Assembly (NCBI GenBank): GCA_050084515.1
Contig: CM114271.1
Span: 8,184,001-8,248,000, forward strand
Length of the DNA: 64,000 bases
Direction of reading: 5' to 3'
Origin: Blasia pusilla
Taxonomy: Eukaryota
The translations under genes were made by a program, and so were the position numbers. This document shows, piece by piece, positions 963-49,053 of the stretch; the stretch's first letter is position 1, and each line of letters begins with the position of its first letter. The notes beneath the pieces are model-generated. The model did no database searches. It worked only from the letters and a program-made list of their open reading frames with translations, and had not been told where the DNA came from.

Positions 963-1183
963 AGTGTGATGCGCAACCCTCTGCTTCCCAAATCCGGTAA
1001 CATATTGCAACAGAATTGAATGTGTTACGGTGGATCCATTGTGTCGACAATGTCACCCACCGAATTCATCTTGTCGGTAAAAAAATGTCAGAGTATCTGT
1101 TTCCTATTCACTATAAATTAAATATTCTCATTCTCATTCTCATTCTCGTCTCCTCCCGTTGGAATCTTCTTGAATGGATAATT

Positions 1184-4100
1184 ATGTTAAGCTCACTTGT
1201 GGCGGTCATCCGTGCCCTTCCTCAATCGGAAATCATTCGACCCCAAGCTCGTGAGTCTTTCATAGTAGTGGATGAAAATTTTCTGTCTGTTCGATTTCTT
1301 CTTCAAATTGGAACCATCTTTGTATCCAAAGATGTTAGGGTGGACGGTACGGAAGACATAATAGGTGAGATGGCCCAGCCAGTGACCTCAGACCGTAAAG
1401 TATGGAATCTCCTACCTCTACCAAATGGTCAATACAGAGTTTACGGCCTGCCCCTGAATTCGTCTGTTTCCCAAGTAGACGGTCTAGAATTTCCTAGTGC
1501 TCCAAGCTCTACGTTTGCAACTCCAAGCTCTGCAGATCCGGCTTCGACTCCAACTTTGCACGCTCGTGACAATGTTGTTTTTCCAGAAGAGATTCCGGAT
1601 GTTATCAACCTCAGTGGATCTGTCAGGCACCAATCGAGCCCTCTGTCCGCCTACTCTTTCCTCTTGCGAGTATCAGGCAATAGTTTGCTTTCGTCTCTGC
1701 CCTTGAAAATGTTCAAGCACATTCTTGTTGACGAGCTGCCGCCCACGTACGATGGTAATTGCATTTTTGAGTTGCCTCCACTTGCTGCTCATGCTCAAAA
1801 GAAGGATGGAGGATGCCTGAAGGGTATGGACAAAAAGTCTGATTGTCATGGATGGTGCAGGCTTCAACGGACCAGTGCTTCCATCCCAGATGGTCCTTGG
1901 ATTGTCTCCCGCCGCCAATGCGTGGGAGCCTTGGAGTGTAGAAGTCCAGCATGCCCGTATCTAGAGCGCAACGGGCGAGTCAATACGTCGCAATTCCCCC
2001 CCAAGAATGCAGAAACTCCATACGAGGTGGGTGCCACAATACCACCGGGAGGCCATCGATGTCCTCATTGTCGCATCGCCTTACGCATTGGAGCGTGTCC
2101 TGCATACATATTTTTCATTGTCCATGACTTGGGCTCCACGCCGAGTATACAAGGTGGCGGTTCATGTTGGCTCGACACTCATCCTGTGACCGATGCAATT
2201 CAAAGACACATCAAGGAGGATGTGGCGAAGAAAGTAGCCGAGGTCTTGAAACTCTCCGGGTTCAAAGCCGGGGTGATCAAGCTCACAACGGCATCACAAA
2301 TTTGTGAACAATTGCTTGGAATCCTTGGGCGAGGCGAGATCACGGCGGTTGAGGAGAAACAACTCGGGAAAATCTCGCATTTCTCGCTGATCCCGAATGC
2401 TTCCGAATTTCTTGCGTCCGATACAAGTTTTGGATGGAAAACGGCCGAAATGGATGCCATCGCGTAATCAAGGCCAACTCCAGATTTCCATTCATTCGAG
2501 ATGGCGTTCATGGGCCAAGGAGGCGAGGATCCAGGGCCTATGTCTTCAAAATGTCAACCACAGTCCCTCGAGTGGCCTCGATCTTATAGATCAAATGAGG
2601 GAAGGGGAAGATCTTTCGGGGTGGTCGGCTTTGATATTTGCTCTGAGTGCTAAGCGAATGGTTGACGATGGGTGCTCACGTTTATGACCATGTGGAGAAG
2701 GGACTCAAAACTATATTTGTGTGTGAAGTAAAGGCGTAAGACGTTGGCGGTTTGAAGATGTCTTTGGTTACTCTTATTGGAGGTGGTGAAGGAAAACAAA
2801 AGGCCACCTCCGGAAATTTATGGGTTCATGGCGGACAATGCACAACCAAGGTGGATTGCTATCCGGGAAGTGTTCTGGGGTGGAGAGGTTCAACCGGAGA
2901 GGGAAAGGTTGGATGCTTTCCATTGGCAACAGTCTGTGACCCGGTACACCAAATCTTGCATCAAGGAGAATAAGAGGACAGAGCATGTCACTCTACTCCA
3001 ACGCTGCAAGGACAGCAAAACCTTGAAGCAGGCCATGGACTGCCAGGAAGAACTTCATGGGTGGTGGAGGAAGCTTGCGATTGAGGGGAAGTACAAAGAG
3101 TTGTGCTCTTGGTAGAGTTGGTGGACTGTACATATGAGACAATGGGGAAACTTCATGCGGCAGGTGAGTTCACTATTTTGTCTTGTCAAGCTCACGCTGA
3201 GAATTGTTTGTAAAGTTGTAGCTCAGGGTGAGAAGCGTGGGAATTATATGGATTTCAAACCCAAGAAACCAAGCAAGTTGTCGGATGCGACGGGTTGCCC
3301 GAGTGTGCAACCCGACGGAAACCGACGGGTTTCCCGAGTGTGCAACTCGACGGAAACCGACGGGTTGCCCGAGTGTGCAACTCGACGGAAACCGACGGGT
3401 TGCATCCAGATGTTTGGTGTCGTCCCGAGTGTGCAACTCGTCGGGACCCAACGGGTCACAAAGTCGTTCATGGGATGCCTCGGCCTTGCAACCCGTCAGG
3501 TTCCGACGGGTTGCAGTAGGTGGGTTTAAGGTTACAACACGTCGGGACCCGACGGGTCGCAGAGTCGTTCATGGGATGCCTCGGGCCTGCAACCCCTCTG
3601 GTTCCGACACGTCGCTTATTTCTTTGACTCCTGGGTTATTTTCGTTCCCTTCTAACATTGCCGTCGTTGCAGGGATTGAACGTTCATGAAAATGCCCTCC
3701 CCCAACACAAGTGGAGCGAAAGTGTTCATTCCTCTTGAGGTCGTCACAAGCATGCCAACGAATTTCACTTGTGGAGGCATGCCAACAAGACCAGGCAAGA
3801 GCAATGCTCTGATCTGCGACATCCCATATCTTTCTCACAAAAGGCATAACAAAAGGAAAAGGGCCGTCGATCTACGAGCTCTATGTCGGGGATTTGTGAG
3901 ATCTCGGTGATGAAAAATTGTATGTCGAAGCCTTCAACCGGTGCGTAGTGGAACTCCACTCGAGCAAGACGTACACATAGGTGGGGATATTCGTGGGCGA
4001 GTTTCAAGATGTCCCATCTGAGATGGTGGTAGAGCGTCGAACGAGACTCGTGGAGACCAGATAAGTATCTTGACTTGAGCGGTGGTGAAGAGGAAAAGAT

Positions 4101-5160
4101 CGAGGAACGAATCTGGTGATTGGTTTGGATGAGGAAATTACACCGCCAGGTATTCGGGGACCCCGGACCCGTCCCAAATCCGTGATGGAGTTACTTCTCC
4201 AAAATCAGTGAATGTTTTATTTCAAAAGCCCTCTGTTGTTGGAAGTTCGCAACATCCTCCTTTGGGGTGGTTCAACAATATGGGATTCGGTAATGGAGGT
4301 GGATTGCAACCTAAAACGGTGGCATATATCTCGGAGCAACCAGGCGTGGACCCACTGCAGGCAGGCGGGATCGATGGCATTAGGAGAGCATGCGGCACTT
4401 TCCTAAATAAGAACTGTACAAGGATCGGGCGACCCACCGCACGGGTTTTAGGGACTCAAAACCTTTGATCGTTTCACGAGGACCGGGATCAATTGAAGTA
4501 CTTCTTCTGCCCAAATGAATCTTGCGCTTTCGGAAGTCTTATCCGGCTGCCATTGAGCTCCGGGAATACCCCACGATTTGGCCCATCGCCGCAGTAGCAC
4601 GAATCGCACTCAAAGACAAGTGGACAATCTTACAAGTGTCGGTTTCAGACTCGTAGAGCGGGGAAGTTCGGAGCATGTTCGCATTCTGAGAGACCTTCGC
4701 ATTTAAGTATTCAACCCAAGATTGATCTCAACATGTACCCGGAGAAGGTGGACGATCTCAATCCATTATTTTGTTTGAGTCTAGAAATTGGGTGAAGAGA
4801 AAGAATGTGTAGCCCAACGGTGGAGAGAGCAAACAATTGCGGCACTCGGGAGGCAAAAATGGAGATCATCGCCATGAAAGATGTCCTGAGTGGCAATGGA
4901 ATAGGAAGGATGTATTGGGTCAGGAACAACACTGTAAATTCAAGTGTCACAGGGGTGTATGTGGTGCACATCTGTTGCTTTCCCACATGTTCATGTGATG
5001 ACTTTGTCCAAAGAGAGACAAATGGCAAAAGGTATTTCCCTTGTAAGCACATGTACTATGTGTTGCTGGTAGTTTTAAGAGAGTCGGAGGTAGGAGTAGG
5101 AATCCACCAACCAATTCATCCCTCAAAGAAGTTCGAAGTATTTTAAACAAACCACTTTGA
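1184..5160 (+). pseudogene. MULE-family transposase with GCM/WRKY-like Zn domain, DDE core and SWIM finger; frameshifted; intron 3164-3672
   Basis: QCVGALECRSPAC...RCPHCRIALRIGACPA...HVGxHTHP (GCM-like). HVYD, YGFMADNAQ and ERLDAFHWQQS resemble the MULE core. CSCDDF...PCKHMYYV is a SWIM finger. Splice sites CAG|GTGAGT and TTGCAG|G. Ends at TGA 5158-5160. Confidence 0.8.
3270..3612. repeat. Palindrome array inside the transposase intron, including a 34-bp tandem repeat
   Basis: (CCCGAGTGTGCAACYCGACGGAAACCGACGGGTTG) x3 plus further degenerate palindromes, all between donor 3164 and acceptor 3672. Confidence 0.85.
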
Positions 5161-5746
5161 GGATGCAAAATGAGGTTTTAGATTGTACTTTTATTTTTTT
5201 CTCAACCTTCACTGTGAGCTTGAACTCTATTCAGCCTAGGGCAAATGATAGATTTTTTCCAGACCTTGGATGGAAAAAGTGATTGGTTCCACACTTATGA
5301 TTCCACTAATTTTTCAGTTTTGTAAATTTTGTGCAATTTGCAACTCGTCGGACTCACAGGGGTTGCCAAAATATGGAAGAGGAAAAAAAAACTATGGGAT
5401 TGTTTAATAAATGAACAAAAAAGTGCAAAAAAATTCACACAAAAAGTTTCCTCTCTTCAACCCAACGGAAACTCTCTTCAAAAAAAAGTATCTATTTCGG
5501 TTGAAGGTAGTTTCCTCTCTCCTCTCTCCTCTCTTCCTCTCCTCTTACCGCACCTCGGGCCCCCCCTAGGTACACCATAGCGGTCCCATGTGTGATGATT
5601 TGAGTCCCGACGCCTTCCTCGGCAGTAAATCTTGTATGCTCTGCAAGGTGACACCCATCCAGTATCAATATGTGCTCCGCCATTTGAAACCACTAAATCC
5701 CAACTTCGAAATGCTTCAATCAACTGAACCCGAGAAAACTTTGAAC

Positions 5747-8700
5747 TCACTCGTCATCGTCTGAGAGCTCTTCCAGAATTACTATCGGCTTCGCCCTCCC
5801 AATTTTCAAAATTCCAAGAAGTGACGATGGTATCACTACCAAGGGAGGCTTTGCAGTTGCAGCACTAGGATTTGGAGGCAAATTGTATACTCCCACCAAC
5901 CTCTCCTAATTCACCTTTGCCTCTTTGCAAAGGTCAAAAAAGTTCAGGCCTTCCCTCAAGGCAGAGAATGTTCCTGCCACTTTGCCAGGGGCCTCTAATA
6001 CTCGCCCTTGATAGGCCTACCAAGTCAAAGACCAAGTCGCCTAGCCTTGAGCAAAGCTCCATGAGCGTCTACATCAGGGCATGTGACTTTTCCCTTCCTC
6101 CAAGTAAGGGGGTCCCTTCATGCATGGAAATTCCTGGGGGGGATTTGTAAAGACTATCTAATGTGTACCCATCGGAGCATGGATCCGGGATGTGGAACAC
6201 CTAGAAGTTGTGCTACAGTCTCACAAAGCAGTAGACATATGAGTGGTCCATCTGTGAACAAGACACGTGCAAAACTTAGTCAACATAAACAAAAGGTAGA
6301 AGATTGATGGTTTGCTCTGTAGATAGTGAGCTCATCTTCGCTCCCTCCAGTCAGCACTAGGAAACACCACCTATCATTAAGATATGCGTCTGCGAAAGAA
6401 AACATAAGAGCAATCTGGTCATAGGAAAGTGGGACATTCTAGTCTGGGACAGCCCTCTTGCTTGAAGACTCGGTCTCTTGCCTTGAAGACTCGGCCTATC
6501 TTCTTGAGGACTCAGCCTCTAAATTCTTCGACCCCTTCGCCTTTGCTTTCAAACCTGCTGTGGATTTGTCCTTGGCAGTGACTACCTTGGCCACCAACTC
6601 AGTTGTCTCGATGGCTTACTCCTCCACATCTCCTTCGAAAAATTCGTCATGCTTCACGAAGTTTGGAATGTCGTCCCTACCAACGATGATTGCCTCATAC
6701 ACCACGCGTAGGTTTTTTTCTGTCATCTCCTCTGGGTTGTTGAAGTCTAATCAGATTGGAAAATTCTATACCTCACACTCATACATGTCATGCCCCATCT
6801 CCATGTCATAGATGGAGAATCCCTCTCCATCAAGAGGAGAAGCCCATAATTTGCAGGCAGCCAGAAATTTGTGCTAGGTACTTGCATTCACACAATAGAT
6901 GAGGTGCATATACACCATCCACTGGGAAGCTCTTTGGCGGGATGACTCGACCGCTTGCTCCTAGAGATCCCGCTTCTTCTTTGCAAAATCCCGTTTATGC
7001 GCGGCAATTTCTTTGTCTAGATCTGCCTGCGGGAGGATGTGATTCTTGAACATCCGGAAGCCGTGACTTTTTGTCGGCTTATCCCTGATGTCATCAAGCT
7101 ATAGTTCAAAATCTTTTGCAACCTCCAGGTTGGCCTCCTCTAGAACTCGCTCAATCTTTTTGAGCTCCGCTTGTAGACCCACGATCATCGGCTTCCTAAG
7201 AAGTCACAGTGCGTCCTAGAAGGACCATTCTTCAAGCCAACGGAAGATCATTGGGTCTGATACTCACGGAGGGTGGTGTGCCGCCCGTTTTTGCGCCTTG
7301 GTGCCCTCGAGACTGATTTTCAATAGTTACATCCACCTAGACTTAGATTCGCGGACAATGCAAACCTGTGCACGCGATCCATAGAGACCTTCTCTCCGAT
7401 TCGACCATGTGGGTCTTTGTCCCTCTTCCACTTGCGCTTGATTATCGCCGTCAGCTCCTTGTAGAACTTTGGTGCCAAGTTCAGGGTTAAGGATTGCAAT
7501 ATATCGCTGCATCTTGCTTGCAGTGTACTTTGAAGCTGTAGACACGGCAGCCTGAATTAATTTAGACCGTTCTGACGCCAAGACATTTTCCCTTCGCTCC
7601 AATTCCAATGTGGTGCTCTTCTTGGCTCCTGGATCTTGGACCATCATAGAATCATGACTGCTGCATCTTGAAAGATGAAGGTATTTGCCCAAGTCTTCTT
7701 CTTTATTTGAGTGCCCTTCGCAAGCATCTCATTGACCGGGTCCTCGCCCGAGAATCCCTTGTGCTCTGACGGGTGCGTCGTAAGCACCTTCTTGACTCTA
7801 TCACATTCCTAGATCCAGTGGTGGATGACGTTCCCCTCAGATACAATCTTGCAAATGAAATGAAGAATAATGATCCCCTGCAACCTGTCAATTTCCGTTT
7901 AATTGCACCAAAGAGTTATGTGCAGAGTGAGTGTAACCCGTCAAACTCCAATGGGTTGCACCACTCTCAAAAAATTGCAAAGATGCGCAACCTGTGAGAC
8001 TCCAATTGGTTGCAACAATCTCTTCGAGTTGCAAAAGTCCTTGAGGCCCAATGTAGGATGTGCCACTCGTCAACGTCCGACGAGTAGCACATCAATATCC
8101 ATCACCATGAAGTGATGCAGGGTCCGACTGCAAAATTCCTTCTGGGGTCAAGGAGACCCCAGAAGCATAATTTAACGCTAATTTTGAACCAAAAGAAATT
8201 TGATTGCAACCCGTCGGACACCAAAGGGTTGCGAAATGACTCCAATTTTGAGTGAGTTTTCTAGATGAAACCTGTGTTTAGCAACTCGTCGGAGTCCGAG
8301 GAGTTGCACAATGGTCTTGTTTGTAAGTCATTGGAGGCCTAAAAGCAACTCGTTGGACTCCAACGAGTTGCAAAAGGTGAAATAATCACCAAGTAGGAGG
8401 CACTTTTGGGAAAATGCAACCTGTTAGAGTCAGACGGGTTGCTTATAGGCCAAAAGTGCCAAAAAACTTGGCAAGTATTTTACCTTTTGCAACTCGTCGG
8501 AGTCCAACAGGTTACTTTTAGGGCTCCGATGACTTATAAACCCTACCATTGTGCAACCATTCGGACTCCGACGGATTTCAGAACACAAGTGTCATCCAAA
8601 AACCTCACTTGAAATCGGAGTCATTTCGTAACCCGTCGGAGTTCGACGGGTTGCAAGATGGTCAAGCAAAATCTTATGGAAGACCTAGTTTCAACCCGTT

Positions 8701-10082
8701 GGAGTCCGACAGGTTGCTGGACTGTACCCAAATTTCCCATGCAAGGTCAAAAAGGATTGTGGCTATCAACACCTATGATTCCTGCCAATCTACAATCTAA
8801 CATTTTTGCAACCCGTCGGACTCTGACAGGTTGAAGCAAGCAAAAATTATTTAGAGAGAAATATCAACTTACGTATTCATAGAATGCATTGCCATCTCCA
8901 CCATTGCCATGTGATGCGGAAATGGATGGAGGACGACTTTCCTCACGCAAAAATGCACCTCCAATGAATTCTGGCGCTCCTCTGCAAACTGTGACCATGC
9001 CATGAACCGGTGGTTCCCATCCCACATGAAGAAGTAGAGGTTCCACATCCAGCTATAGTGGGTTCCTTCAATAGCTCTTCTGAATTCCTCGTCTCTGATC
9101 CTCCAAAATGTGTCCAAGGCCTCCAAGTCTTCTTCCGTCACCAGAGCATGCGTTCCATGTTCACCATAAGGCTGAACATAGAACGGAGGGAAGCTCTCAA
9201 CGTAGGATACTGTCGCAACCAACTGCTTTGGCTTTGCGATGTCCTCGTCTGACTGAATTTTGTGGACGTAATCCATTTTCCGCATCAACAAAGTGGAATT
9301 CTTGGGGACTTGTGATAGTCCACCACTGCCATATGCTTAACAACTTGCCATAATGCCGAGAATGTCAATAAGCTACTTTTTCATATTTTTCTGATGAAGA
9401 AAGGAATTGAGAATGCGATTTCAGATATGCCATTGTCTACTTACCCGCTTGAAAATTGGGTCGGTGCGAGGCTAGGAAGCTACATTGGGACAACAGCTAG
9501 CAAGTCCACAAAAAATTCATCGATGCGATAGAAATCAATTTCTTCCACCGGGCTCAATGGTGATGATGACTCTTCTCCTGCTTCTTCAGAGATGTCCACC
9601 ATCTCCACACTTTCTTGCCTCATGACCTCCTTGTCCGTCTCCTAAACTTCTACGCTTTCCTCAGCCAATTTTAAGGTCATCGTGTCCCTAGACCTCATCG
9701 GGGACACATCCTCCATCTCAACGTTGTCCGTAGGATAGGCGGCGCTTTCTTCCATGGCGATTGATTTTTCCCTCCGCGCTTTTGTCAATTCTGCTCTCTT
9801 GATGGAGGTGTCGAGATGCTTCTTCTATCGCTTCTCATCCACAACTCTTTTCTTCAAGGCCTTAGATGCCTCGGCCTCCGCGTTCTACCTTGCGAGCTCC
9901 TCAAGAGCAAGCTTTGCCACAACCTCCTACTCGTGCATTTTTACTTCCCTCTCCCGGTCCTCTATCTCTTGTTGCCTAATTTTTGCTGCCAAGCGAGGGC
10001 CAAGAGATGGCGACGCAGGAGTCCTGATGGACTTGGGAATGACGCTCCCAACCTTTGTTGCTTGTATTTTCTTCCTTGTCAT
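5747..10082 (-). pseudogene. Transposon accessory gene: coiled-coil + ParB/Srx-like domain + beta-class N6/N4 DNA methyltransferase-like domain; many stops and frameshifts
   Basis: ATG 10082 (MTRKKIQ...), then a charged coiled-coil. GTAAGT donors at 9444 and 8872. The exon between them has YFFMWDGNHRFMAW. Near the 3' end: REKSHALM*TLMELCSRLGDLVFDLVGLSRASIRGPWQSGRNILCLE (~6095-5955). Ends PIVILEELSDDDE-TGA at 5747. Confidence 0.75.
7880..8835. repeat. Palindrome array inside the second intron of the accessory gene
   Basis: About 12 copies, e.g. GCAACTCGTCGGAGTCCGAGGAGTTGC at 8281 and GTAACCCGTCGGAGTTCGACGGGTTGC at 8628, all downstream of the - strand donor at 8872. Confidence 0.85.
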
Positions 10083-10407: not shown

Positions 10408-10505
10408 AAATGAGCAAAATCTGTGCCTTATATACTTTTTGAGCCGTTGAGCTAACCCTTGGTTCGTGGGAACCATTGTATCGACGGCGACGTCAACCAT
10501 TACGG
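10408..10505 (-). promoter_or_regulatory. TATA-box region (AAGTATATAAGG on - strand) of the accessory gene
   Basis: Conserved with 130-225; lies between the accessory ATG and the palindrome array. Confidence 0.5.
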
Positions 10506-10539
10506 TGCTTTGCACGTGGGACATCAAGGCGAGGTCCCC

Positions 10540-11105
10540 GTGCAACCCATCAAACTCCCACGGGTTGCAAGGAAGAAGCGGCCATCATGCAACTTAACAG
10601 AACTAGATAGGTTGCACGGGCAAGGGGTACCGACCGAGAACCCTGTGCAACCCAACCGACTCCGACAGTTTGCACCACGTGCAACTTGTAGAACTCTGAT
10701 GGGTTGCAAGGATGAAGGTGGCCAAGGGGTTGCAAGTTTTTGGATTTGTACGGGTCCCAATCATTGTCGGGACTTCCCGAGACCCCACGCAACCCTTTGC
10801 ACTCCGATGGGTTTGCAACATGTCGAACTCCAACGGGTTGCAAGTTGTCAGAGTCAGAGTTTGCAAGGGGACGGATTCCGGAAATTTGCAACTAATCGAA
10901 CTCTGTTGGGTTGCAACTTGGCAGAGTCGAACAATTTGCAAATTGTTAGATTCCAAAGATTTGCAACCAGAGGAATTTCGTGGGTTTGCAACCACTCAGA
11001 CTTTGATGGGTTGCAACTAGTCAGAGTACGACGATTAGCAACCATTCGGATTCTGAAAATTTGCAACCAGATGGCCAACCTGAGCCAATCCGAAAACTTT
11101 CAACA
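10540..11105. repeat. Degenerate palindrome array between the two divergent transposon genes
   Basis: About 15 copies of TGCAAC...GTTGCA, some overlapping head-to-tail at 23-bp period (~10887-11065). Confidence 0.85.
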
Positions 11106-11133
11106 ATTCAACGTAATCAATCCCAAGGGAAAG

Positions 11134-12395
11134 TGTGATAACCCACTCTAGTGAGAATTTTGTATTTTGGATGTTTTTTGTACATAAATAGGTAAAAGTC
11201 TTTAGGAGGGAAGATTGAAGATTTTGTAGAAGATTGTAAATATGAATAGAGGAAGAGAAATAGTTGGAAGAGTACTTGATAAGGCTATTTAGTGAAACTC
11301 CATTGAGAAGACAAGGAAATTGGAAGATCAAGGAAGTGTCTTGGATGAGTGAAAATGATTGTAAAGACTGTCAAGCAAGACTGTAAAGACTTCTTCTTTG
11401 CAGCCAAAGTTCCAAAGGAGTCTTCGTGTGAAGACTGTAAACAAAGATCGAAGAGCGAAGACCAAAGAACGAAGAACGAAGATCAAAGAGTCTTCACGAA
11501 GATACGACTGCGAAGAGTGCGAAGATTGTGAAGACCGAACGGTCACAGCGGTTTCGCAAGCCGAAATGGAGCGGCACAGCAGTTTAAAAAGAAGCGAAAA
11601 TGACTGGCCAGGGAAACCAACTATCTTAGGAAGATGGAGGGTTGCAGAATTTGAATCGAGGAGGTTAGGATTATCAGCCAGAAATCTAGAGTAGAATCGG
11701 AAGATCAATCAGGAATTGTAAGAGGCTATTTAAAGAATAAATTAGAAGAAGAAGGGATTCCCCAGTACTGTTGGTTAGCATCAATTCCTTGTATCTTGAG
11801 TTTACCATTAGTCTTGGTGGGTTGTGTAAGGATTTCTTTGGGGATGATCCAAGGTGAAGAGTCTTTTACTTTCTGAAGCTTGTAATACTTTCTAGTTCTT
11901 TCCACTCTTTGATGCAGAAGAAGAGTCTTCTCTTATGCTTTTCTGATGTGCAAAGTTGAGTGTAAAATCTTATTGGGTTGCAGTAAAGATGAGAGTTGAG
12001 TCTTGTGATTTTGGAATTCCAGAAAATAATCAAGAAGAGCGTAGGAAAGCTATTAGACAGTGAGTAACCTGTCGTGACAGATTCAGTTCTGAAAGTAGGA
12101 TTAGCTGCCATTCTTGAGATCTCTTTGAGATCTTTGTTGGAGCTTTGTTATTCCATATTCAAAAGAGTCTTTGTGTGTACTTGAGAAGAGTCTTTTCCAA
12201 GAGGGAAAAAAACCTTTTATTCTTTTGTACTTGTAAAGAGTGTAGTTGTAGTTAGTCAATAAAGTCAGTGAAGAAGGAGTTATTCTTGTTATTTCTTATA
12301 AAACTTCTCTTTACTCAGGAAACAATGGTCTCTTGGGAACGAACTTAATACTTTTCGATTAAAGGAGTATCTTTTTCCTTGAGTTTTACATTACA
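11134..12395 (+). mobile_element. Solo LTR, family A (~1.26 kb)
   Basis: TGTGATA...ATTACA termini. Absent from copy 1. Homologous to 14701-17200. TSD not clean (GAAAG/GAATT). Confidence 0.7.
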
Positions 12396-13585
12396 GAATT
12401 TATTTGTATTGCACACAACGTCAGACAATCTCACCTACCAACCAACATCTTGTCATATAATTTATGTTAGGAGAATAACGGTCACTATTCACTACAAATT
12501 AAATATTCTCATTCTTACTCTCATTCTTATTTTCATTCTCCTACTGGTGGAATCATCTCCAAATGGATAATTATGTGAAATTCACATGTAGCAATCATCT
12601 AGCGGCCCTTCCTCAAGTAGAAATAATTTGACCGCAAGCTCGTGAGTCTTACATACAAGTGCATGAAAATTTCCTCTCACTCTGATTTCTTCTCCAAATT
12701 GGAAAAATCTTTGTTTCCAAGGAAGTTAGGATGGACGGTACGGAGGATGTTGTAGGTGAAACAGTCTAGCAAATGATTGGAGACTCTAAAGTATGGAATC
12801 TCCTACCTTACACAAATGGACAATACAGAGTTTATGGCTTGCCTCTGAAGCATTTTGTTTCCCAAGTGGATGGTCTGCAATTTCCTAGTGCATTGAGCAC
12901 GACATTTGCCACTCCTACATGTGTAGATCCAGCATCGACTCCAACTTCACATGTTCTTGACAATGTTATACTTCTTGAAGAGATTTCGGATGTCCTCGAC
13001 CTCACGGGATCTGTTGGACACCAACCGGAGCCTGCCTCTGCCTACTCATTCTTGTTGCGTGTTTCGAGCAATAGTTTGTTGTCATCTCTTCCCTTTAAAA
13101 TCTTCAAGCACATTCTTGTCGATGAGTTGCCCCCCACGTATGATGGTAATTGCATTTTTGAGTTGCCTCCACTTGCTGGTCCTGCTCAAAAGAAAGGTGG
13201 AGGACGCTTGAAGGGTATGGACAAAAAGTCTGACTGTCATCAATGGTGTAGGCTACAACGAACTAGTGCTTCAATTCCAGGTGGTCCTTGGATTTTTTCT
13301 CGTCGCCAATGCGTTGGAGCCTGGGGTGTAGAAGTCCTGGTTGTTCGTTTCTAGAGCGCAATGGGCGAGTCCATACATCGCAATCCCCCCCAAAGAATGC
13401 AAAAACTCCATATGAGGTTGGTGCTACCATACCGCCAGGAGGCCATCGATGTCCTCATTGTCAAGCATCCCCTTTCTTTGTTAGAGCGTGTCCAACAAAC
13501 ATACTTTTCATTGTGTGCGACTACAATTTTACATTCGAGTACACCAGGCTAGCAGTTCATGTTGGTTCCCACACTCATCTTGTTA

Positions 13586-14007
13586 TGTGAGAAAACAGAA
13601 AGTGACTAAATCACTGAAATCTTTACAAAAACTTAGAGATACAAAGTGGCCTAGTCCGTCCGTGCGCTCACAGAAGAGCTTTGATGGAACCTGAACTGGG
13701 AGATAACTCGACATACGAGAATGCGCTACCGCTGCGGCTCCCAACTATTTGACTACTCGGGAAAACTAGGATTTTTACCTATTTTTCTTCGTTTCTATTA
13801 ATAGAAAAATTTTGCATCAGGGTGCCCCGCACCCTGATGCAATATAGGGTTAGATAAACCTAGTAACGCTACTCCGTAAACCACCTACGTCATATTACTA
13901 TGACTCCTTCGACCTCTAAGTCGGAACCATCGATCTAGGCTTCTCCTCATACAAGGGGGCCGATCAAATCAATGGTGCTCAGAGGAGTGGATGTTGAGAA
14001 TCCAATA
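13586..14007. mobile_element. Solo LTR, family B (422 bp)
   Basis: Exact 5-bp TSD TGTTA (13581-13585 and 14008-14012). TG...TA termini. Removing it restores colinearity with copy 1. Confidence 0.8.
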
Positions 14008-14700
14008 TGTTACCAGTGCAATTAAGAGACACATCAAGGAGGATGTGGCAAAGAAAGTGGCTAAGGTATGTAGAAATTCTCTGAGATCAAAGCCTGGGTG
14101 ATCAAATTGACAACAACATCACAAATTTGTGAACAATTTCTTGGAATCCCTGGCTAGGGCGATAACACGGTTGTTGAGGAGAAACAACTATGGGAAAATC
14201 TGGCATTTCTTGCTGATCCTGAATGCTTCAGGAACTTGATGCGTCAAATACGAGTACTTGATGGAAAGACGGCCGAAATGGATGCCTTCGCCAAGATCAA
14301 GGCTAACTCCAGATTGCCATTTATTCAAAGATGGTAGTTCATGGGCCAGGGAGGCGAGGGATCTAGAGCTTATGTCTTCAAAATATCTATGATAGGGTCA
14401 AATGAGGGAAAGAGAAGATCTTTACGGCCACCGGGTAAGTTTTGATATTTGGTGTACGGCACTGAATGGATGGTTAACCATGGGTGCTCACGTTTACGAC
14501 CATATGGAGAAGGGACTCAAAACCATATTTGTCGGTGAGGTAAAAGCATAAGACGTTGGCAGTTTGAAGATGTGTTGGTTACTCTTATTGGAGGTGGTGA
14601 AGGAAAAAAAAGGCCACCTCCTGAAATTTATGGGTTTATGCCAAAAAATGCACAATCGGGATGGATTGCTATCATGGAAGTGTTCTAAGGTGGAAGAGTT

Positions 14701-17200
14701 TGTGGTGCCCGCATTTTTGAAATTTTGGTAGAAAGATTTTTTTTGTACAGAATTGTAGTAAAGTCCTCATCGATTGAAGACTAAGGGCTCAAGATTGGAA
14801 GTAAAGAGGTATACTTTACAGAAATTGTGGAAGCATGGAATGGAAGATCTTTGTTGAAAGGACAAGAGAGAGTGAGAAATTGAGGACCGTCTTGGAGGAG
14901 TGAGAAGGATGTAAGAATACGAAAGAAGAATGAAAGAAGAAGTAAGAGTACGAGGCGCGGGTGCTTCGTAGCGAAGACCACAGTACGGAAAGATAGTGAA
15001 AGACTGTTAAGCAAAGATGGTAAAGGACATCTTCTTTGCAACAAAAGTTCTAAGGGAGTCTTTGCGTGAAGACTATGAACAAAGAACAAAGACCGAAGAC
15101 CAAAGAGCAAAGACTAAGAAAGCAAAGAAGCAGAAGAAAGAAGAAGAAGGAATCAGAGAGTCTTCACAAAGCATAAAGATGTATGAAGAATAGGAATAGA
15201 AGAGAAATAAGGTTTTGAAGAAAGTGGATGGAAGTGAAGTCACGAGGAGGAATTCTTCGCGGTGGCAAAAGAAGTAATATAGTGCTTCACGAAGATATGA
15301 TACGAGTGCTTTGCGAAGATATGATAGGAGTGCTTTGCGTTCAGCGAAGACTGTAGATAGTGGACCGTCGTAAAAGTTAGAAATGTAAGGACACCGTGGT
15401 TCAGATGGAAGCGGAAGGGAATCAACAGAGAAATCAACCAAATCAAGGGAAAGGAAGGGTTGAAAGATCTGAACCGTGGGATTGACAGTTAGAAATCTAG
15501 AAGGAAGTAGAAAGAGCAGCCAAAAATTGTAAAGAGACTATTTAAAGGATAAAGCAAAAGAGCACGGGGTCATTCCCTTGTGTCTTGAGTTATTAGTACT
15601 TTTGTTGATTGTGTGAAGAATTTCTTTGGGGATGATCCGAGCCGAAGAGTCTTGTTCCCTATGAAGCTTGTAATACTATCTAGTTTCCTCCACTCTTCGA
15701 TGCAGGAAAAAGTGTCCTCATTCATTCTTTCTGATGTGCTTCACTAACTCCAGTAACTAAATCTTCACTAAGATAAAAGAACAAAATGATTTTCTTTCCT
15801 CTTGGAAAAGACTCTTCTGAAGTGCATATGAAGACTCTTGCGAATTTGCAATAACAAAGCTCCGCGAAGACCTCAAAGAGACCTCAAGAATGGCGGCTCA
15901 CCCTACTTTCAAAACTAAATCTGTCATGGTAGGTTACTCATTGTCTAACAGCTTTCCTACGCGTCTTCCTGATTATCTTCTAGAATTCTGAAACTACAAG
16001 ACTCAACTCTCATCTCTACTGCAGCCCAATAAGATCCACATTCAATTCCGCACCTCAGAAAGAATGAGAGAAGATTCTTCTTCTACATCAAAGAGTGGAA
16101 AGAACTAGAAAAGTATTACAAGCTTTAGAAAGTAGAAGACTCTTCAGCTTGGATCATCCCTCAACCAAGCTTCCTACATACTCACCGAGACTGCTGGTAA
16201 ACTCAAGATACACGGAACAGTATTGAGGAATTCAAGACACAAGGGAATGATTCCTTCTTCTACTAATTTGCTCTTTAAATAGTCTTTTACAATCCTTGAT
16301 TGATCTTCCTATTCTAATCTAGATTTCAAACTGCTACTCCTAACCTACTCTATTCACATTCTCCAACCCTCCACCTTCCTAAGTCAGCTGGTTTAATTTC
16401 CCTAGCGTTTCATTTCCGCTCCCTTCTTAACCGCTGCGCTGCTCCATTTCCAGCTTTCAAAACTACCGCGATGATTCGGTCTTCACAGTCTTCGCAGTCC
16501 TATCTTCGCATTCTTATCTTTGCACGAAGACTCTTATCCTCTTGCCGCCGTGAAGAGTCCTCCTTTCTACTTTCTTCCATTCTATTGTCTTCAAAACATT
16601 TCCTATGTTTCTATCCCTATTCTTAATACACTTTTCCGCTTTCTAAAGACTCTTTGACTTCTTCTGCTTCTTCCTCTTCCTTCTTAGAGTTCTTAGTCTT
16701 TGCTCTTGGGTCTTTGCTCTTTGTTCTTTGTACTCGGTCTTTGCACAAAGACTATCTTCAGTCTTCTTTACAAAGAAGCTTTTTCTTAGTCTTTGTTGAC
16801 AGTCTTCACTGCCCTTCTTACTGCGGTCTTTTCTTACGAAGCACCCACGCTTCCTCTTCTACTTTCTTTTCCAATCTTTCACACAATTCTCACTCTTCCA
16901 AGACATTCCTTAATCTTCTAACATCTCTTGTCCTCTCATCAAAGTTCTTTTAGTCATTATTCAAACAATTTCGGTAAAGTAAGGCTCTTTACTTCCGATA
17001 TTGAGTCTTTCGTCCTTGCTCAATGAAGACTTCTAAACAAAACTTGATCTTTCTCTCAAAAATTCAAAAATGTGGGCACTACAAGTTATTCTTTATATTT
17101 TGTATAAAACCTCTCTTTTCTCAAGAAATAGTGATCTCTTGGGACGAACTTAATACTTTGCAATTAAGGGAGTACCTTTTTCCTTGAGTCGAATATTACA
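14701..17200 (+). mobile_element. Solo LTR family A with a nested inverted family-A LTR
   Basis: TGTGGTGCCC...ATATTACA termini; TSD GAGTT/AAGTT. Transposase sequence resumes at 17201. Confidence 0.8.
15740..17083 (-). mobile_element. Inverted, 3'-truncated family-A LTR
   Basis: 17083 reads TGTAGTGCCCACATTTTTG on the - strand, matching the LTR start. The body is the reverse complement of 11134-12270. Confidence 0.8.
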
Positions 17201-20200
17201 AAGTTCAACCAAAGAGGGGAAGGTCAAATGCTTTCCATTGGCAACAGTATGTGACTCTGTACACCAAATCTTGCATCAAGGAGAATAAGAGAACATAGCA
17301 TGTTGCTCTACTCCAACGTTGCAAGGATGAACAAAAGCTTGAAACATGCCATGGAGTGCCAAGAAGAACTTCATGGGTGGTGGAGGAAGCATGCGATTGA
17401 GAGCAAGTATAAAGAGTTGTGTTCCTGGCTCACTTGATGGACCCTATAAATGAGACAATGGGGAAACTTAATATGGCAGGTGAATTCACATTTTCTCCTT
17501 TCAAGCTCATGCTAAGAATTATTCGAAAAAAAATGTAATCCGTTTCGTTCTGAAAATGTGGTCTGAATCCCACATCGTTCTGAAAATGTGGTCGAAAAAA
17601 AATGTGGTCAGAATCCGACGAGTTGCACATGGATTTTCCAAGCCGGACTGGCCTCCTACTTGCAACGCGTCCAATTTTGACGAGTTGCAGTAGGAGGTTC
17701 TTGGGTGTTGCAACACATCAGAAACCGACGAGTTGCACATAGACATTCTTGGGATGCCTCCGACTTGCAACCCGTCGGGTTCTGACACGTTGCTATTTTC
17801 TTCGCTTACAGAGCTTTTTCCGTTCCTATCTCATATTTTTGTCTATGCAAGAATTGAACATTCATGAAAATGCCCTCTGCCCCAACAGAAGTGGAGCCAA
17901 GAGTGTTCATTCCTCATGGAGGTTGTCAAAAGCATGCCAAAAAATTTCACTCATGGAGGTATGCCAACAAGATCAGACAAGGGCAATGGTACAATTTACA
18001 ACATCCCATATCTTCCTCACAAAAGGCATAACCAAATGAAAGGGACCTTCCATTTACGAGCTCTATGTTAGGGCCGCTGTGAGATATGGTGATGAGATAT
18101 TATATATGGAAGCCTTCAATTGGTGCGTAGCCAAAACTTCCCTCGAGCAAGACGTCCACATTGGTGGGGACATTTGTGGGCGTGTTTCAAGACGTCCCAT
18201 ACAGATGGTGGTAGAGCAGTCTAAGCGAGACTCTTGGAGAAAAGATAAGTATCTTGACTTCAAGCATGTCAAGCGTCAACATCAAGGAACGAACCGGGTA
18301 ATTGATTTGGATGAAGAAATTACCCCGCCCAATTATTCGGAGACATCATATTGCTCCTAAATTCGAGTAGAAGTAACTTCTCCAAAATCATTGAATGTTT
18401 TATTTCAAAATCCCTCTGTTGCTGGAACTTCCCAACATCCAGTCTCAAGGGTAGTTTAACTGTATGGGATTCCGGTCATTGAGATGGATTGCAACCTTAA
18501 GAGGTGGCATATATCTCAAAGCAACCCAAGAGGTGGACCCACTTGTAGGATAGGATGCAATGGCATTAGAAGAGCATGTGGTAATGTACAAGGAATGGAT
18601 GACCACTCCTTGGCTTTTGGGGGCTCAAAACCTTTGATTGTTTTACCAGGACCAAGGATCAATTGAAGTACTTCTTTTGCCCAAATGAATGATGTGCTTT
18701 CTGAAAGTCTTATTTGGCTGCCCTTGGAGCTCCAGGAAATACCCCCACGATTTGGCCCATTGCTGCAGGTACCAATTGCACTCAAGAGGAAGTGAAAAAT
18801 CTTACAAGAGTCGGATTCTGACTTATAGACAGAGGGAGTTCGGAACATGTTTGCATTACAAAGACCTTTGCATTTCGGATCCAACCTAAGATTGATGTCA
18901 ACATGTATCCGGAGAAGGTGGATGATCTTAATCCACTATTTTTGTTCGAGTAAAGAAATGGGATTAAGAGAAATAGAATGTGTAGGCCAACGGTGGAGAG
19001 AGCAAAGCAAATCGCATCATCTCGTGAGGCAAATATGGAAATCATCGCCACAAAAGATGTTCATAGTGGCAATGGAATAGGAAGGATGTATTGGATCAAG
19101 AACAACACTATGAATTCAAGTGTCACAGGGGTGTATCTGGTACACATCGATCTGTTGCTTTCCCACATGTTCCTGTGATGACTTTGTCCAAAGAGAGACC
19201 AGTGGGAAAAGGTATTTCCCTTGTAAGCACATGTACTATGTGTTGCTTGTAGTTTTAAGAGAGTCAGAGGTAGGAGTAGGAATCCACCAACCAATTTTGT
19301 CCCTAAAACAAGTGCAAAGTATCCTAAACAAACCACTTTAAGGATGCAAAATGAGGTCTTAGATTGTACTTTGAAGTGCCAAAATGTTCACTATGAGCTT
19401 GAACTCTAATCAGCTATGGAAAAATGATGAATTTTTTTCAGACCTTGGATGGAAAAAGTGATTTGTACAACATTTTTTATTCCACTAATTTTTCAGTTTT
19501 TTTTATTTTGTGCAAGTTGCAACCCGTCGGATTCAGAGGGGTTGCTAGAACGTGGAAGAGAAAAAACCAATCTGTGCGAGTGACTAAGCACAGAGAACAA
19601 AATTGCAAAAATATTCATAGAAAAAACTTCCTCTCTTCAACCCAACGGAAACTCTCTTCAAATCACAAGAAGCTCTCTTCAAAAAATAAGTATCTCTTTG
19701 GGTTGAAGGTAGTTTCCTCTCTCCTCTCTTCCTCTCCTCTTACCGCGGCTCCAACCGATTGAGTTACATTCGCTATCAAATTAGAGATCTATGCAATTAC
19801 TAGAGAATAGGGAATGGATCCATGGGACCCACTCCTAAGTTCCACTTAATTATAATAACAAACCTCAAAAGAGGACAAAGAAAGGTATTAACATCTCAAA
19901 AGAGTAGGGGTCAAAAACTACATAATGGAATGCAAAAAGAAAATGGAACTAGCCAACACAAATACAAACTCAATAAGCTACACGATTGATAGCCTCAAAC
20001 AAATTTGACAAGAATTCTAGTGGTTGGTCAGACATGAACGGATGACAAGGCGATCCACCCCCACCACTTCCGCACGATATATCAATGCCAAAGCTTGTGC
20101 ACGTTTTAATGCCATTAAGATGCATTGCCCAAAATAAATAGTGACTACAGAGAGAGAAGGACTACATGAAGAGGCAAGGTGATGATTCTTCACGGAGTGG

Positions 20201-26100: not shown

Positions 26101-26824
26101 GACCCCTCCTTGTCAGATAACGCTGAATTACATGGAAGCTGATTTTATTTCGTTTCCTCTGAGTTCCCTCATTCGTAGTAGCTTTTGGGCAAGATTACAA
26201 TCATCAAAATGACGTCCAGATGGTCAAGAGTTCTCTACCTATCAGGAAGCGATTTGGATTCCCTCCTTCATTCTTGAAATCACTGCCCACAACACTCGAT
26301 TGTGCTTCTTAACATGGTTGGTATTTCTTGGTCATATTATGCAGCGGTCAAAGCAAAGAGGAGGGAGTTTTTCAAAAGACGGATACGACTTTTGGAGCAT
26401 GTTTAAAGAGCCAAAGCACATCCGTGAACTGAAGGACAAAGCAGGAGCCGACAAAAGTCTAGATGAATGAGATGATTAAATGCTTAATTAAATCTTTATA
26501 TCATCACATCCATTTATTTCAATGCATGAAACCATTACAGCGACAGTAATTGTTGATTCATCTATCTCTACCCTTTTGTTACACTTTGAGTGAACCCACT
26601 GGTACATAGTTCGTTTTAGATGGTTTGTGCTCATTTTCCCGTAAGGCAATTTGGTGATAGGTAGGCTGGTACCGCAGCGATAAGGAACAGGTCATCCCAG
26701 TGGGGAACATTTAAAGCGAAGTTTGGAGTTGTTTGTTTGGATTCATGGAAGTGCGGTTGCTTATTTAATCCACGATCTTTTTGATGTACCGCTTAGTTTT
26801 CCGTGATCTAAGAAGCTAGGAGAG

Positions 26825-28109
26825 ATGGACAGTCAACAGGTTTCCTGCAACGACTCACTTTCACAGTTATCCATCATGGAAGAGATTTTGGTTGATGAAG
26901 GCAGCAGGTGTAGGACCTGTAGTTTGGAACAAGGGCAAGGGGCTAATAACTCGCAAGCAGGTCGAAATGTTCTGGAAGAACGTAATGGTGAAGGAAGTGT
27001 GCAGTCATGGAGTATATTTGCACCCTGTGAAACTAACGCTTGTGAAAGTGGAGAAGGTGAACAACATAATGCCCATAGAGGAAGTGGAGACCATAGTGAC
27101 TGTGGTCTTCCAGATGGGTTTGAGCTTGTTTTACGTTACATGGATTTGAAGTCTCTCCTGTGTCTTGAGAGGGTATGCAAGCCCATGCAGCAAGCAGTGA
27201 AGGATGTACTTCTGTGGCAGGAGGTATGCGTAGAGCCACCTCTTAACAGAAAGTTCACAGACGATATCCTTTTGGCCCTTGTTGGAAGGGCGGATGGATG
27301 CTTGAAGTTCCTTGTTCTCGTGAAGTGCTTGGGAATAACTGTAGCAGCAGTGGAGCGAGTCCTCTCTCTTAATCCAGGGATTGAAAAGGTATGTATTTGG
27401 GTATTCTTTGTCGAGAGTTGTTTTGTGTTAGCTTCTATCTCCTTTAGGTTATGCTCTCAATTGTACCGTGCGACCAACAGTCAGTAATTTACTCTTACAG
27501 GTGTTTTTTAATTTGCAGCTATCTCTGCCTGGGTGCACTGGAGTTATTGTCGAAGAACTTGTGACAATGGTTCAAGAACACTCTCTTGACAGTAGGGCAA
27601 AAGGTTTTGCAAGTATGAAGCAGCTGAGAGTCAAAGGTATGTACAAAATCACTCGCGAGCATCTGAACGTGCTACAAACTGTGATACAATCCAGCAACTC
27701 AGACCAGGTCACTCCCACGCAACCTCTATACTGGAGTGGGCATGACGGATATGTACTTCCAGATGGGCGAGCAATCGATGTTGACCTGTGTCCCTTGTGC
27801 AAAACTGGGAGGATGGTCTACGACTGCACTCTGGAAGAGCTGGACGAGACAGATTGCTGGAGACATGTCAAGGATCCTTGCCGCGAGTGTTTGCTCTGTA
27901 TACTCAGATGCTTTATCTGTGGCCGGTGCTTAAATGTCTCTATATACGGTGATGACGAGTGTGGATTCCCGTGTTGTCCAGAATTGAGAGTCTGTTGGCC
28001 CTGTGGGGTGTCCTTCACCAGATGCAATGAGTGTCATCTCCCTAGCTGTGGACGACACTGTAATGGAGCTTCTTTTACATGTGAGAATTGCGCTGGCAGA
28101 AAAATCTAG
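26825..28109 (+). CDS. F-box protein with C-terminal Cys-rich region (SKIP14/SKIP28-like); exons 26825-27388 and 27519-28109, ~384 aa
   Basis: F-box LPDGFELVLRYMDLKSLLCLERVCKPMQQAVKDVLLW, then LSLPGCT and IDVDLCPLC...VYDC...CRECLLCILRCFICGRC. In-frame GT-AG intron. Confidence 0.85.
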
Positions 28110-42500: not shown

Positions 42501-44816
42501 GCATTTCCTACGCATGATCCCAAGAGGTATGGCAATTCCTCTAAAGCCATCAACCACATGGTTCATCCATGACCACTCTTGGACTCTTAATCTCGGATAT
42601 GAAATCAACAAAGAAGTTATCTCTGAGGAGAATGATTAAAAATCATTGGACGTCTTGCTTACACACTACAGTTTTACTCCCCGATGAGGCGATAACTGTG
42701 TGCTCAGACTGACTGAAACCGGCTGCCAGGTACAAGTTTGAAAAACTGAAATTGAACAAGTTCATGCATCAGAGAAACATGGAGACCTGTGCATGAATGT
42801 TAGCAAGAGCTTTAACAAGGATGGCAATCTAACTTGTTAAGCTCAAACGCCTTCTTTGCCAAGGACTTGCTTAGCATTTCCAAGGAACTTGAGTAGCCTT
42901 GCTCTTCTTTACATAGAGGTTATTGTAAGCCTCCATTTCTGAGAGTCAGGTGTCATGAATTTTTCACATTCTGATCAATGACCATTCGTCGTAAGTATCT
43001 ACATCAATATTACCCTTTTGACAGTTAAAATCTTAACCACCTCAACGGCTTGACAGAGGGTTTAAGGCCCAATGTAATTAGACAGGGCATTTCCAATACC
43101 CAATAAAAACAAAAGAACTATTACACACAGTTCCAAAGAAATAACAGACCATGTCCAAATCATGGCATCCCAAGATAAATCCATATGAGGATTAAGAGAC
43201 ATTAACACAACTGTGCTCACCGATAATTTTTTAATAAAGCTGAGAGAAAAGCGGTGATATGATTAAACTCTGAAGGAAAAGAAATCTTTCAAACCGGAGG
43301 TTTCGGACACTGATGACAACAGATGATCAAGATTATTTTTTTTTCAAATTGAGCCACATAGGAATGTCATAGTCAACATCTCCATACACAAAGTTTGATA
43401 TGACATTGGAGGGTTGAGATATTGAAACAGGGAGTGTTGATAGACCCCTTAAGCAAACAAGATAATTGCTTCTGCTTCCTTTCTTCAAGTCAGAACCAGT
43501 GCAACAAGACCTCCACAAGGCTACTTCATGACATTAGTGAGATTTATACTACCCTTCAATAACAAGAGTAAACCTTCACGAAATCAGAAGTTTGCATAAT
43601 CTTTAGGGTCGCACTGTGAATAATACTTCTGCACATGCACTCATCTTGATGGTTAACACATAGTTGAATCTCAGTTGCAAGTCTTGTTGAAGCCTTCATT
43701 CTGTTTGATACCAGTTAAACTGGGTGATATTTCACAGGGTGGGACGTCCAGACAGCTCTAAATGTAAACAAAACTGACGGAGCAACAGTGCTTGTAAGAT
43801 CTTAAAGCGCTCAAAATATAATCAGGGCAACTATGCAGTGACCCCAAATCGTATACAGTTATCCATCTCAGGGTCCACAATCTGCATGTTGGATCATTCC
43901 GCCACGAATCATGAGCGTGTAATACCCGTCCGATAAAAAAATATCAGTCGACCGAAAACGAGACACTAGAATAGAGACGTAAGATACGTATAGAGCATGC
44001 TGTTCGGTAGCTTTCCCACCTCCTGGGATCCGCTGCGAATACTGACAGAAGGTCTAAATGTGGTACATGGCCTGCCCAGCAATTATTTAGCAAAGGAGTT
44101 GGAACACCAGGCACACGTCGCCACTGCAGACAAAACCATAGCTGAAGGATTCAGCAGCACATCAGGTCACCACTTGCGATCAAGTACACCGGCACTACAC
44201 CCTCTATGACTAAACATGACGCCACAACACCATGAACGGACGTTACGCTCTTCAAGGCGTTCGTCGATGCTAGTCAACGTCAGATCATGCGTCACCTTCC
44301 GATCATGGAGCGGAACTCGACACCAGGTCCCTCCTGGAGATCTTCATGATCCAAATACATTGCACAAAGTCTCAGAAAAGACACACTCCTCGAACAAGGC
44401 CTTAAATGCCCGGCGACTTCCGAACGAATACCAGCATCAATTTGGCCCGGGCTACTTGGGCGTGGGTGCTGACTTGCCTATTACAGGTAACTGGAATAAC
44501 TTCACTCTGGCCTAACCAGTTCGTGAAAACATCTCTCACTGGACAAGACATGTCTCGCAGTCCGTTCTCGGACACTCTGGACTTGCATTACGTAATTACC
44601 CAGAAACTTGAAGGAGTCTTTTTATCTTCCAACTTGAGGAAGAGGAAGTCACTGAAGGACGACGTTGGCTTCGACAACACAAAGAAGGCCCCGGCCACGG
44701 GCTTCCAAACTGTGTAGAACTCATCATACCTGTTTCCGTGAGGCACTTTCGGGCGGCGGCCGATACAGCGGAGTCGATTGAAGGCCAGGAAGCCATTTCT
44801 GCCTGGGTGCTGACAT
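30502..44816 (-). CDS. GI: GIGANTEA, 14 coding exons (44816-44730, 41309-41238, 41031-40977, 40792-40650, 38037-37769, 37597-37539, 37234-36994, 36866-36716, 36247-36035, 35753-34161, 33955-33887, 33632-33411, 33171-33079, 30822-30502), ~1195 aa
   Basis: Diagnostic GI peptides: AYVELFGQ, FVLHHPEHGHA, SEQWAHACAEILRVLTHYNRP, STPRWAVANGAAVILSVCDDEVAR, ATFDSYVIAAVCALACEVQL, ATDGMTLDGESCKLPQLE, RLPATVRCLSH. All exon phases are consistent. Confidence 0.95.
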
Positions 44817-49021: not shown

Positions 49022-49053
49022 AAAATATTTATTTTTTTACAAAGAGTGCTTAC

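Follow-up and report, generated by a model that had tools for sequence, protein, structure and literature searches.

Few prokaryotic amino-methylases have been recruited by eukaryotes, and those that have (N4CMT, DN4MT1, methylase-bearing retrotransposons) attract current interest. The locus described here raises the question of whether another one lies hidden, in broken form, in a plant genome and, if so, whether it is an enzyme of the host. It is located in a 64,000-nucleotide stretch of Blasia pusilla contig CM114271.1 (assembly GCA_050084515.1, positions 8,184,001 to 8,248,000 of the forward strand), hereafter the window, the coordinates of which are used throughout. A first-pass annotation, made from the letters alone, had read a beta-class N6-adenine/N4-cytosine methyltransferase fold from the minus strand at 5945-6455, which it described as absent from the list of open reading frames (ORFs). 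As judged from sequence comparison, this interval descends, with a probability of roughly 0.85, from a beta-class amino-methylase domain of the PF01555 type. The resemblance to N6_N4_Mtase that had been pointed out is real homology, which became visible only through relatives of the window copy: we regard it as settled because one such relative, the metagenome contig L084, was found independently by way of an upstream ORF and has matching exons that hit PF01555. What these alignments support is homology to the methylase fold, not membership as an enzyme.

The broken reading frame and its relatives

Translation of the minus strand over 5700-6800 exactly reproduces the peptides quoted in the first-pass annotation. 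NVPLSYDQIALMFSFADAYLNDRWCFLVL is read in one minus-strand frame (6438-6280), while a second frame gives YVYCFVR (from 6239) and GGREKSHALM*TLMELCSRLGDLVFDLVGLSRASIRGPWQSGRNILCLE (up to 5937). Three in-frame stops, every one of them TAG, interrupt this second frame; a further TAG stop is located at 6439-6441. The features of the piece, listed in the direction of the gene (an asterisk within a peptide marks a stop), are:

6616..6750, minus strand: piece with ...AIIVGRDDIPNF..., in the same frame as 6438-6280; possible relic of motif IV (see below)
6454..6520, no strand: 3.2 tandem copies of a 21-bp unit, within a stretch inserted relative to L084, the matching exon of which is without it
6355..6468, minus strand: block like exon A of L084 (F.FAD.YL.D...), 36% identity over 39 amino acids (aa), E 0.042 (tblastn), colinear with two stronger blocks
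6439..6441, minus strand: in-frame TAG, aligned to the W of IPPWNV in L084
6201..6215, minus strand: two in-frame TAG (6213-6215 and 6201-6203) in ...FVRL*HNF*VFH..., from the translation
6024..6194, minus strand: block like exon B of L084, from motif X (REKS..LM.T..E) into GDLVFD, 62 aa, E 9e-6, also found by tblastx
6069..6071, minus strand: in-frame TAG inside motif X (HALM*TLMEL), where L084 has K at the same position
5937..6068, minus strand: eroded motif I followed by motif II/III, GDLVFDLVGLSR....GRNILCLE, from alignments to methylases
5934..5938, minus strand: stop codon and one-base length difference relative to many copies, with a break of frame, from the contig comparison
5747..5905, minus strand: possible C-terminal tail of the gene in a shifted frame, ending ...EELSDDDE*, a suggestion by inference, with nothing in Pfam

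The block like exon A corresponds to the part between motif IV and the middle of the methylase-like domain, and the block at 6024..6194 aligns to the QKP..L..LI....GD.V.D block of PF01555 methylases. Beyond the break at 5934..5938, the next frame reads on as ...NFFDLCKEAKV.... The insertion relative to L084 amounts to about 70 codons and contains the 21-bp repeat, which is what had been described as an ESSR repeat. The frames of the two C-terminal blocks differ, and reading the window sequence turned up no intron of compatible phase that would join them. The window copy is non-functional: it carries four in-frame TAG stops, its frame is broken, and both the 21-bp repeat and the palindrome arrays described below have been inserted.

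The relatives were reached from the other end of the gene, which in the window is represented by a single open frame:

8869..9336, minus strand: open ORF of 155 aa, N-terminal domain with a FFMWDGNHRFMAW box (motif DGNHR; probable ParB/Srx-like Box II)

A word-indexed protein search in 'near' mode returned one protein relative of this ORF, P0003 (E 1.3e-4); the 'longer' mode of the same search returned none, and tblastn of the ORF against phages gave no match. L084 and a second contig, L085, were found by scanning metagenome contigs with an alignment of the 155-aa ORF and P0003, not with the methylase piece. Both have a eukaryotic build, their introns being short and of the GT..AG type. L084 and the window share three matching blocks, colinear and on a single strand (tblastn/tblastx): the DGNHR-domain block (exon 1 of L084 against window 9204-8875, 112 aa, E 4e-11), the F.FAD.YL.D block (E 0.042) and the REKS..LM.T..E....GD...D block (62 aa, E 9e-6). 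The outer blocks are spaced by 2918 nucleotides (nt) in L084 (449 to 3367) and by 2920 nt in the window (9033 to 6113). Three colinear blocks with equal spacing therefore make the upstream ORF and the interval of the first-pass annotation parts of one gene, and 5934-6468 on the minus strand is likely to represent the C-terminal portion of a single decayed copy of a repeated gene extending from ~9336 to 5750.

This gene family has evolved under constraint. Between the first exons of L084 and L085, the ratio of nonsynonymous to synonymous substitution rates (dN/dS) comes to 0.12 (180 codons; synonymous sites are close to saturation), a value that covers the N-terminal exon only. The gene family therefore encodes, or recently encoded, a constrained protein. 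L085 itself has an in-frame TAG at 3036-3038, where L084 has leucine; a decaying copy or a sequencing error are both possible.

The methylase homology is carried by the C-terminal exons of L084. Pfam lists PF01555 as the sole family for exon B (E 0.021, 15.2 bits, profile positions 163-194). When the three C-terminal exons were aligned by hhalign with 15 phage methylases, three colinear matches were obtained: one at the place of motif IV, where FDLVIADIPEN falls on VDCVITDPPY (E 0.053), one from motif X to motif I (E 3.6e-5, 71.5%), and one from motif I to motif II/III (E 0.0036), which begins at the end of the preceding match. Spliced at its GT..AG introns (exons 2768-3115, 3232-3472 and 3575-3753), the C-terminal domain of L084 reads through 256 aa with no stop. 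It scores 26.8 bits with a 17-sequence hidden Markov model (HMM) of methylases and 20.9 bits with a 10-sequence HMM that was not query-chosen, where the best of 2000 shuffles reached 7.3 and 5.6 bits, respectively; with an HMM of the C-terminal half from which the top families had been removed, it scores 23.8 bits. By hhalign, the spliced domain aligns at 93.6% (E 2e-7) and, once the threshold is loosened, it remains colinear along all 240 columns of the domain. The beta-class motif order IV, X, I is found in L084; in the window, only motifs X, I and II/III could be placed.

Copies of the stretch, and the window copy by itself

Contigs of two sequencing runs of the same organism (X1 and X2) were placed on 5600-9600 at 80% likeness or more. 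The placed contigs number 1351 (X1) and 845 (X2) and are mostly less than 95% alike to the window: 654 and 416 are below 90%, and only 66 and 42 reach at least 99%. They cover 5600-7877, 8280-8413 and 8816-9351 and are sparse over the palindrome arrays, where depth is 1.6-77 in six of seven bins (the bin 8280-8413 stands at 588-687) and rises to hundreds to thousands on either side. At position 6071, another letter accounts for 704.0 of a depth of 710.5 in X1 (16 contigs) and for 562.5 of 562.5 in X2 (14 contigs). The TAG at 6069..6071 is private to this copy, because nearly all other copies carry that other letter. One base is left out at 5936 in 235.7 of 271.7 (X2) and in 43.4 of 401.5 (X1). 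From the contig counts and their graded likeness, the stretch is therefore a decayed member of a high-copy, old repeat family.

We also considered whether it could be a pseudogene derived from a normal host gene that exists in a single copy and is flanked by transposons by accident. Such a gene would account for the introns in L084 and for evolution under constraint. It would not account for 1351 and 845 graded contigs on the stretch in two runs, nor for single positions at which 14 to 30 distinct contigs share the same alternative letter, and we give this explanation next to no weight. The window copy is, very probably, a dead pseudogene of a repeat family. It has no function of its own, and its value is that of a pointer to the gene family.

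Taken by itself, the window copy offers borderline evidence of its ancestry. By tblastn, the piece has 97 weak matches (best E 0.2) in a set of 50,697 phage records; among the best 20 of the 97, there were 13 annotated methylases, 6 unannotated records and 1 record of hypothetical proteins. Pfam assigns three of these methylases (phages of Bacteroides, Escherichia and Rhodococcus) to PF01555, and all three align to the piece on the common block QKP..L..LI....GD.V.D.FGGSG....GR..I..E. With a 17-sequence HMM of the C-terminal half, no other tile in the six frames of the window scores as high as the piece (11.3 bits, the next locus having 4.0), and hhalign aligns the piece with methylases at 80%. 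An hhalign value of 91.8% was also obtained, which is biased because the methylases had been picked by the query.

A number of results weigh against the descent from PF01555. No methylase family was listed by Pfam, PHROGs or NCBIfam at E<=10 for the pieces or for a 101-aa read-through (stops read as X); the filters of HMMER conceal most matches above E ~0.1. The read-through also drew nothing from the word-indexed protein search in 'longer' mode, and PDB sequence searches gave nothing relevant for the piece or for the upstream ORF. An exhaustive phmmer search of 1.84 billion representatives returned only 2 bacterial repeat proteins, which were aligned in several stretches and judged spurious. 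With the HMM of 10 distant methylases that were not query-chosen, the piece scores 2.0 bits (rank 42 of 4249 six-frame tiles), and only three of these 10 align to it by BLASTP at E<=0.1. Removing the families of the best matches from the C-half HMM lowers the piece to 4.4 bits, no longer the top tile. Even L084, at 15.2 bits, is below the PF01555 gathering cut-off of 26.7, so that membership by gathering score is reached neither by the window pieces nor by L084. Finally, the N-terminal half of the methylase domain has no independent signal, scoring -0.7 bits by itself, so that the placement of motif IV rests on a weak match (E 0.053) and on colinearity.

Could non-coding DNA, then, simply mimic the GD.V.D...GR..I..E block of PF01555 in a six-frame translation? 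The empty searches of Pfam, PHROGs, NCBIfam, PDB and 1.84 billion proteins fit such an accident, as do the best phage E of 0.2, the 2.0 bits of the unbiased HMM and the bias of the first hhalign comparison. What makes chance very improbable is that the piece shares homology with an L084 exon (E 9e-6), this block being aligned in step with two others at equal spacing, that L084 matches PF01555 although it was found without reference to methylases, and that hundreds of diverged copies of the stretch exist. The profile comparison proposed in the first-pass annotation thus had two outcomes: PF01555 has no significant match in the window piece alone, which counts against the proposal on its own terms, and it is matched through the homologue L084, which supports it.

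Two other candidates for motif IV in the window were set aside. DDIPNF at 6616-6750 has no alignment to exon A of L084 and none at the right place of the methylase profile. SFPPFY, in the best window tile of an N-half HMM (7.9 bits), lies in the 155-aa ORF and is not kept in P0003, L084 or L085.

The ParB-like domain, the catalytic motifs and known systems

The first-pass annotation had also hinted at phage ParB-methylases. The hint was apt, as the gene begins with a domain which is probably of ParB/Srx fold, its DGNHR box being the probable Box II. FF.WDGNHR..AW is invariant in all four members of the N-terminal domain. By hhalign against the ParB_N part of viral ParB-methylase fusions, the DGNHR box falls on LIADGEHRWRAA (E 0.0021, probability 13%); two of the fusions are confirmed by Pfam as ParB_N plus PF01555. 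P0003 matches a ParB-like PHROG at E 0.3. Language-model feature searches (Atlas) point to ParB_N, DUF6551, DndB and fungal DUF3723, and an Atlas model of L084 exon 1 gives a TM score (structural similarity) of 0.54 against a ParB family cluster; both are leads only. On the opposite side of the balance, Pfam and PHROGs gave no ParB_N match for the window ORF or for exon 1 of L084 or L085, a PDB search with the four-member profile of the domain gave nothing, and AlphaFold models had a confidence score (pLDDT) of 38 from two sequences and 36 from four, which makes them unusable. Relatives of the N-terminal domain were found neither in 2.9 million viral contigs nor in prokaryotic genomes. The colinear blocks of L084 and the window place both domains in one gene, with the ParB fold as such only probable. 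The viral comparators are contigs L076, L083 and L086-L091, which carry ParB_N plus PF01555 fusion methylases sharing the LIADGEHRWRAA box; they surfaced among distant relatives of the Bacteroides phage methylase.

Of the methylase domain, the family retains in recognisable form only the scaffold on the S-adenosylmethionine side, namely motif X, the GD.(I/V).D strand and GR..(I/A)..E. No DPPY or SPPY occurs in the translations of the window piece, and motif IV in L084 is DIPE, not (D/N/S)PP(Y/F/W), with an IPPW 14 residues later. Motif I reads DWNASTG in L084 and DLVGLSR in the window, where F.GSG is invariant in 15 phage methylases. The degenerate FxGxG and the lack of a canonical (D/S/N)PP(Y/F), both remarked on in the first-pass annotation, thus recur in the better-preserved L084. 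With DIPE as motif IV and FxGxG lost, we therefore infer that the gene family no longer methylates canonically, and canonical methylation has probably been lost in the gene family. A host enzyme of the N4CMT or DN4MT1 kind, which the first-pass annotation had brought into play, does not fit a locus that is a dead copy of a high-copy repeat, and DN4MT1 has a TSPPY which is missing from the gene family.

The family might nevertheless be an active amino-methylase with unusual motifs, such as IPPW, in which case the window would hold a dead copy of a working enzyme gene. Consistent with this are the purifying selection (dN/dS 0.12, in the N-terminal exon only), the retention of motif X and the GD..D strand, and the sequence ..NDVIPPWN.. 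of L084, on the W of which the window stop at 6439-6441 falls; moreover, the algal transposon proteins described below have been described as predicted N4/N6 methylases. However, IPPW has no canonical D/N/S ahead of PP, both FxGxG glycines are gone in L084 (DWNASTG) and in the window (DLVGLSR), and the N-terminal half of the domain is not recognised by methylase HMMs. We thus consider an active enzyme unlikely.

Proteins that join the two domains are known from several systems. From Ectocarpus, a protein of 1104 aa has been described (Sola1-1_Ec32) in which a ParB-like domain is combined with a predicted N4/N6 DNA methylase domain and whose gene lies opposite that of the transposase within a Sola1 element of 21.5 kb; similar ParB-like plus methylase proteins are cited for green and red algae (PMC12477816). 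According to a preprint on Bostrychia, accessory genes there carry ParB or N6A-methylase domains, and the one with ParB (PAG3) has arrays of inverted repeats next to it. Fusions of ParB fold and PF01555 are enriched in phages (PMC12704722), and eukaryotic methylases derived from phage ParB-Tls loci have been catalogued by Iyer et al. (PMC4738411). Marchantia DN4MT1, an expressed host enzyme, keeps TSPPY (bioRxiv 10.1101/2021.02.12.428880). Our literature search met no report of such a ParB-like/methylase-like gene in land plants, which is weak evidence of absence.

By published description, the algal proteins share with the present gene the order from ParB-like to methylase domain and the length of the protein. 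As in the algal transposons, the gene lies on the strand opposite to a transposase-like neighbour and is repeated in the genome, and there are inverted-repeat arrays nearby, as beside the red-algal PAG3. It differs from the algal proteins in its plant host, in a methylase domain that is below threshold in Pfam and without DPPY and FxGxG, and in that the transposon superfamily is unproven. The ParB_N plus PF01555 fusions of phages and prophages (ParB-Tls loci; for example L086 and L096) have the same architecture, their motif X and GD.V.D...GR..I..E block align with those of the gene, and DGNHR aligns with DGEHR. The phage fusions, however, are ~400-460 aa long and intronless, with canonical DPPY and FxGSG and clear Pfam matches, whereas the gene extends over ~3.7 kb with introns, a long middle part and eroded motifs. 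With DN4MT1 and bdelloid N4CMT it shares an origin as a eukaryotic gene from prokaryotic beta-class amino-methylases; unlike DN4MT1, a host enzyme with TSPPY, the gene family has DIPE, a ParB-like N-terminal domain and a high copy number. By language-model features, the clusters closest to both N-terminal domains are those of fungal DUF3723 (PF12520), with values of 0.93 (window ORF) and 0.95 (L084) and 180-188 features in common; this is a lead only, and the N-terminal domains have no HMM match to PF12520.

By analogy, our preferred reading of the gene is a plant variant of the algal transposon accessory proteins that has diverged and has probably lost catalysis. The family protein would consist of an N-terminal DGNHR domain (probably ParB/Srx), a long middle without assignment and a C-terminal domain derived from a beta-class PF01555 methylase, in the domain order of the phage ParB-methylase fusions. 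The former methylase domain may persist as a DNA- or cofactor-binding module that works with the ParB-like part, and the product may bind its own element, as suggested by the algal transposon accessory proteins. Taken to its end, and with doubt prevailing, a possible scheme is that a plant lineage contains a high-copy, intron-bearing family that arose from a phage-type ParB-methylase and is constrained without catalytic motifs, in which a DNA- or S-adenosylmethionine-binding module and a ParB-like clamp mark or tether the palindrome arrays of the element. If this scheme is true, the family would be a new class of non-catalytic transposon accessory protein, the first outside algae. To date, DNA-transposon passengers that join ParB and methylase domains are known from brown, red and green algae; a plant relative would extend the class and provide a natural case of a methylase domain that lacks its catalytic motifs and is yet constrained.

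Surroundings of the gene

Two repeated structures adjoin or interrupt the gene:

1104..5551, plus strand: repeated element with a weak SWIM zinc finger (tentatively Mutator-like), from self-BLAST; SWIM E 0.0042, below the Pfam cut-off
7878..8815, no strand: arrays of ~30-nt palindromes (GCAACCC..GGGTTGC), with a 191-nt inverted repeat 8204-8394 / 8466-8656; largely specific to this copy

The homology of the 4.4-kb element ends at ~5548, and the gene ends ~20-200 bp away on the opposite strand, so that the two stand tail to tail. A second copy of the element, ~80% alike, lies at 12485-19746 and is interrupted at 14694-17203. The palindrome arrays occupy the place of the poorly conserved middle of the gene. 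Arrays are present at 152-916, 3116-3689, 7888-8833 and 10456-11151, inside or beside the Mutator-like element and the ParB-like gene, and the strict palindrome pattern has 6 matches in the window against 0.02 expected.

By analogy with the algal elements, we moderately favour the view that the gene is, or was, the passenger of a DNA transposon. Two observations speak against it: a search for terminal inverted repeats gave none, either at the copies of the Mutator-like element or at the gene-bearing stretch, and the gene does not recur after the second copy of that element. Because of these two observations, linkage of gene and transposase in one element is unproven. Pfam detects no transposase domain in the Mutator-like copies.

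With no transposase linkage proven in the window, the stretch might instead be a relic of an endogenised virus, from a phage-like or giant-virus gene set, and ParB_N plus PF01555 fusions are indeed enriched in phages (PMC12704722) and present among the viral contigs compared here. A viral relic is nonetheless improbable: L084 has spliceosomal-type GT..AG introns, there is no relative in 2.9 million viral contigs, the very high copy number and graded divergence are typical of a transposon family, and the stretch abuts a Mutator/SWIM-like repeat.

Elsewhere in the window, 33397-48373 and 49040-64000 are direct duplicates of 15 kb (99.6% identical), each with a GIGANTEA-like gene; the duplication either arose in tandem very recently or is an artefact of assembly. 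ORF 34080-35753 matches GIGANTEA (PDB 7wa4_A, E 7.5e-69), and its counterpart in the duplicate is ORF 50035-51384; with a GIGANTEA gene in the window, the genome is therefore plant-like. At 26807-28109, on the plus strand, ORFs with an F-box (E 1.2e-5) followed by a cysteine-rich region probably belong to a host gene.

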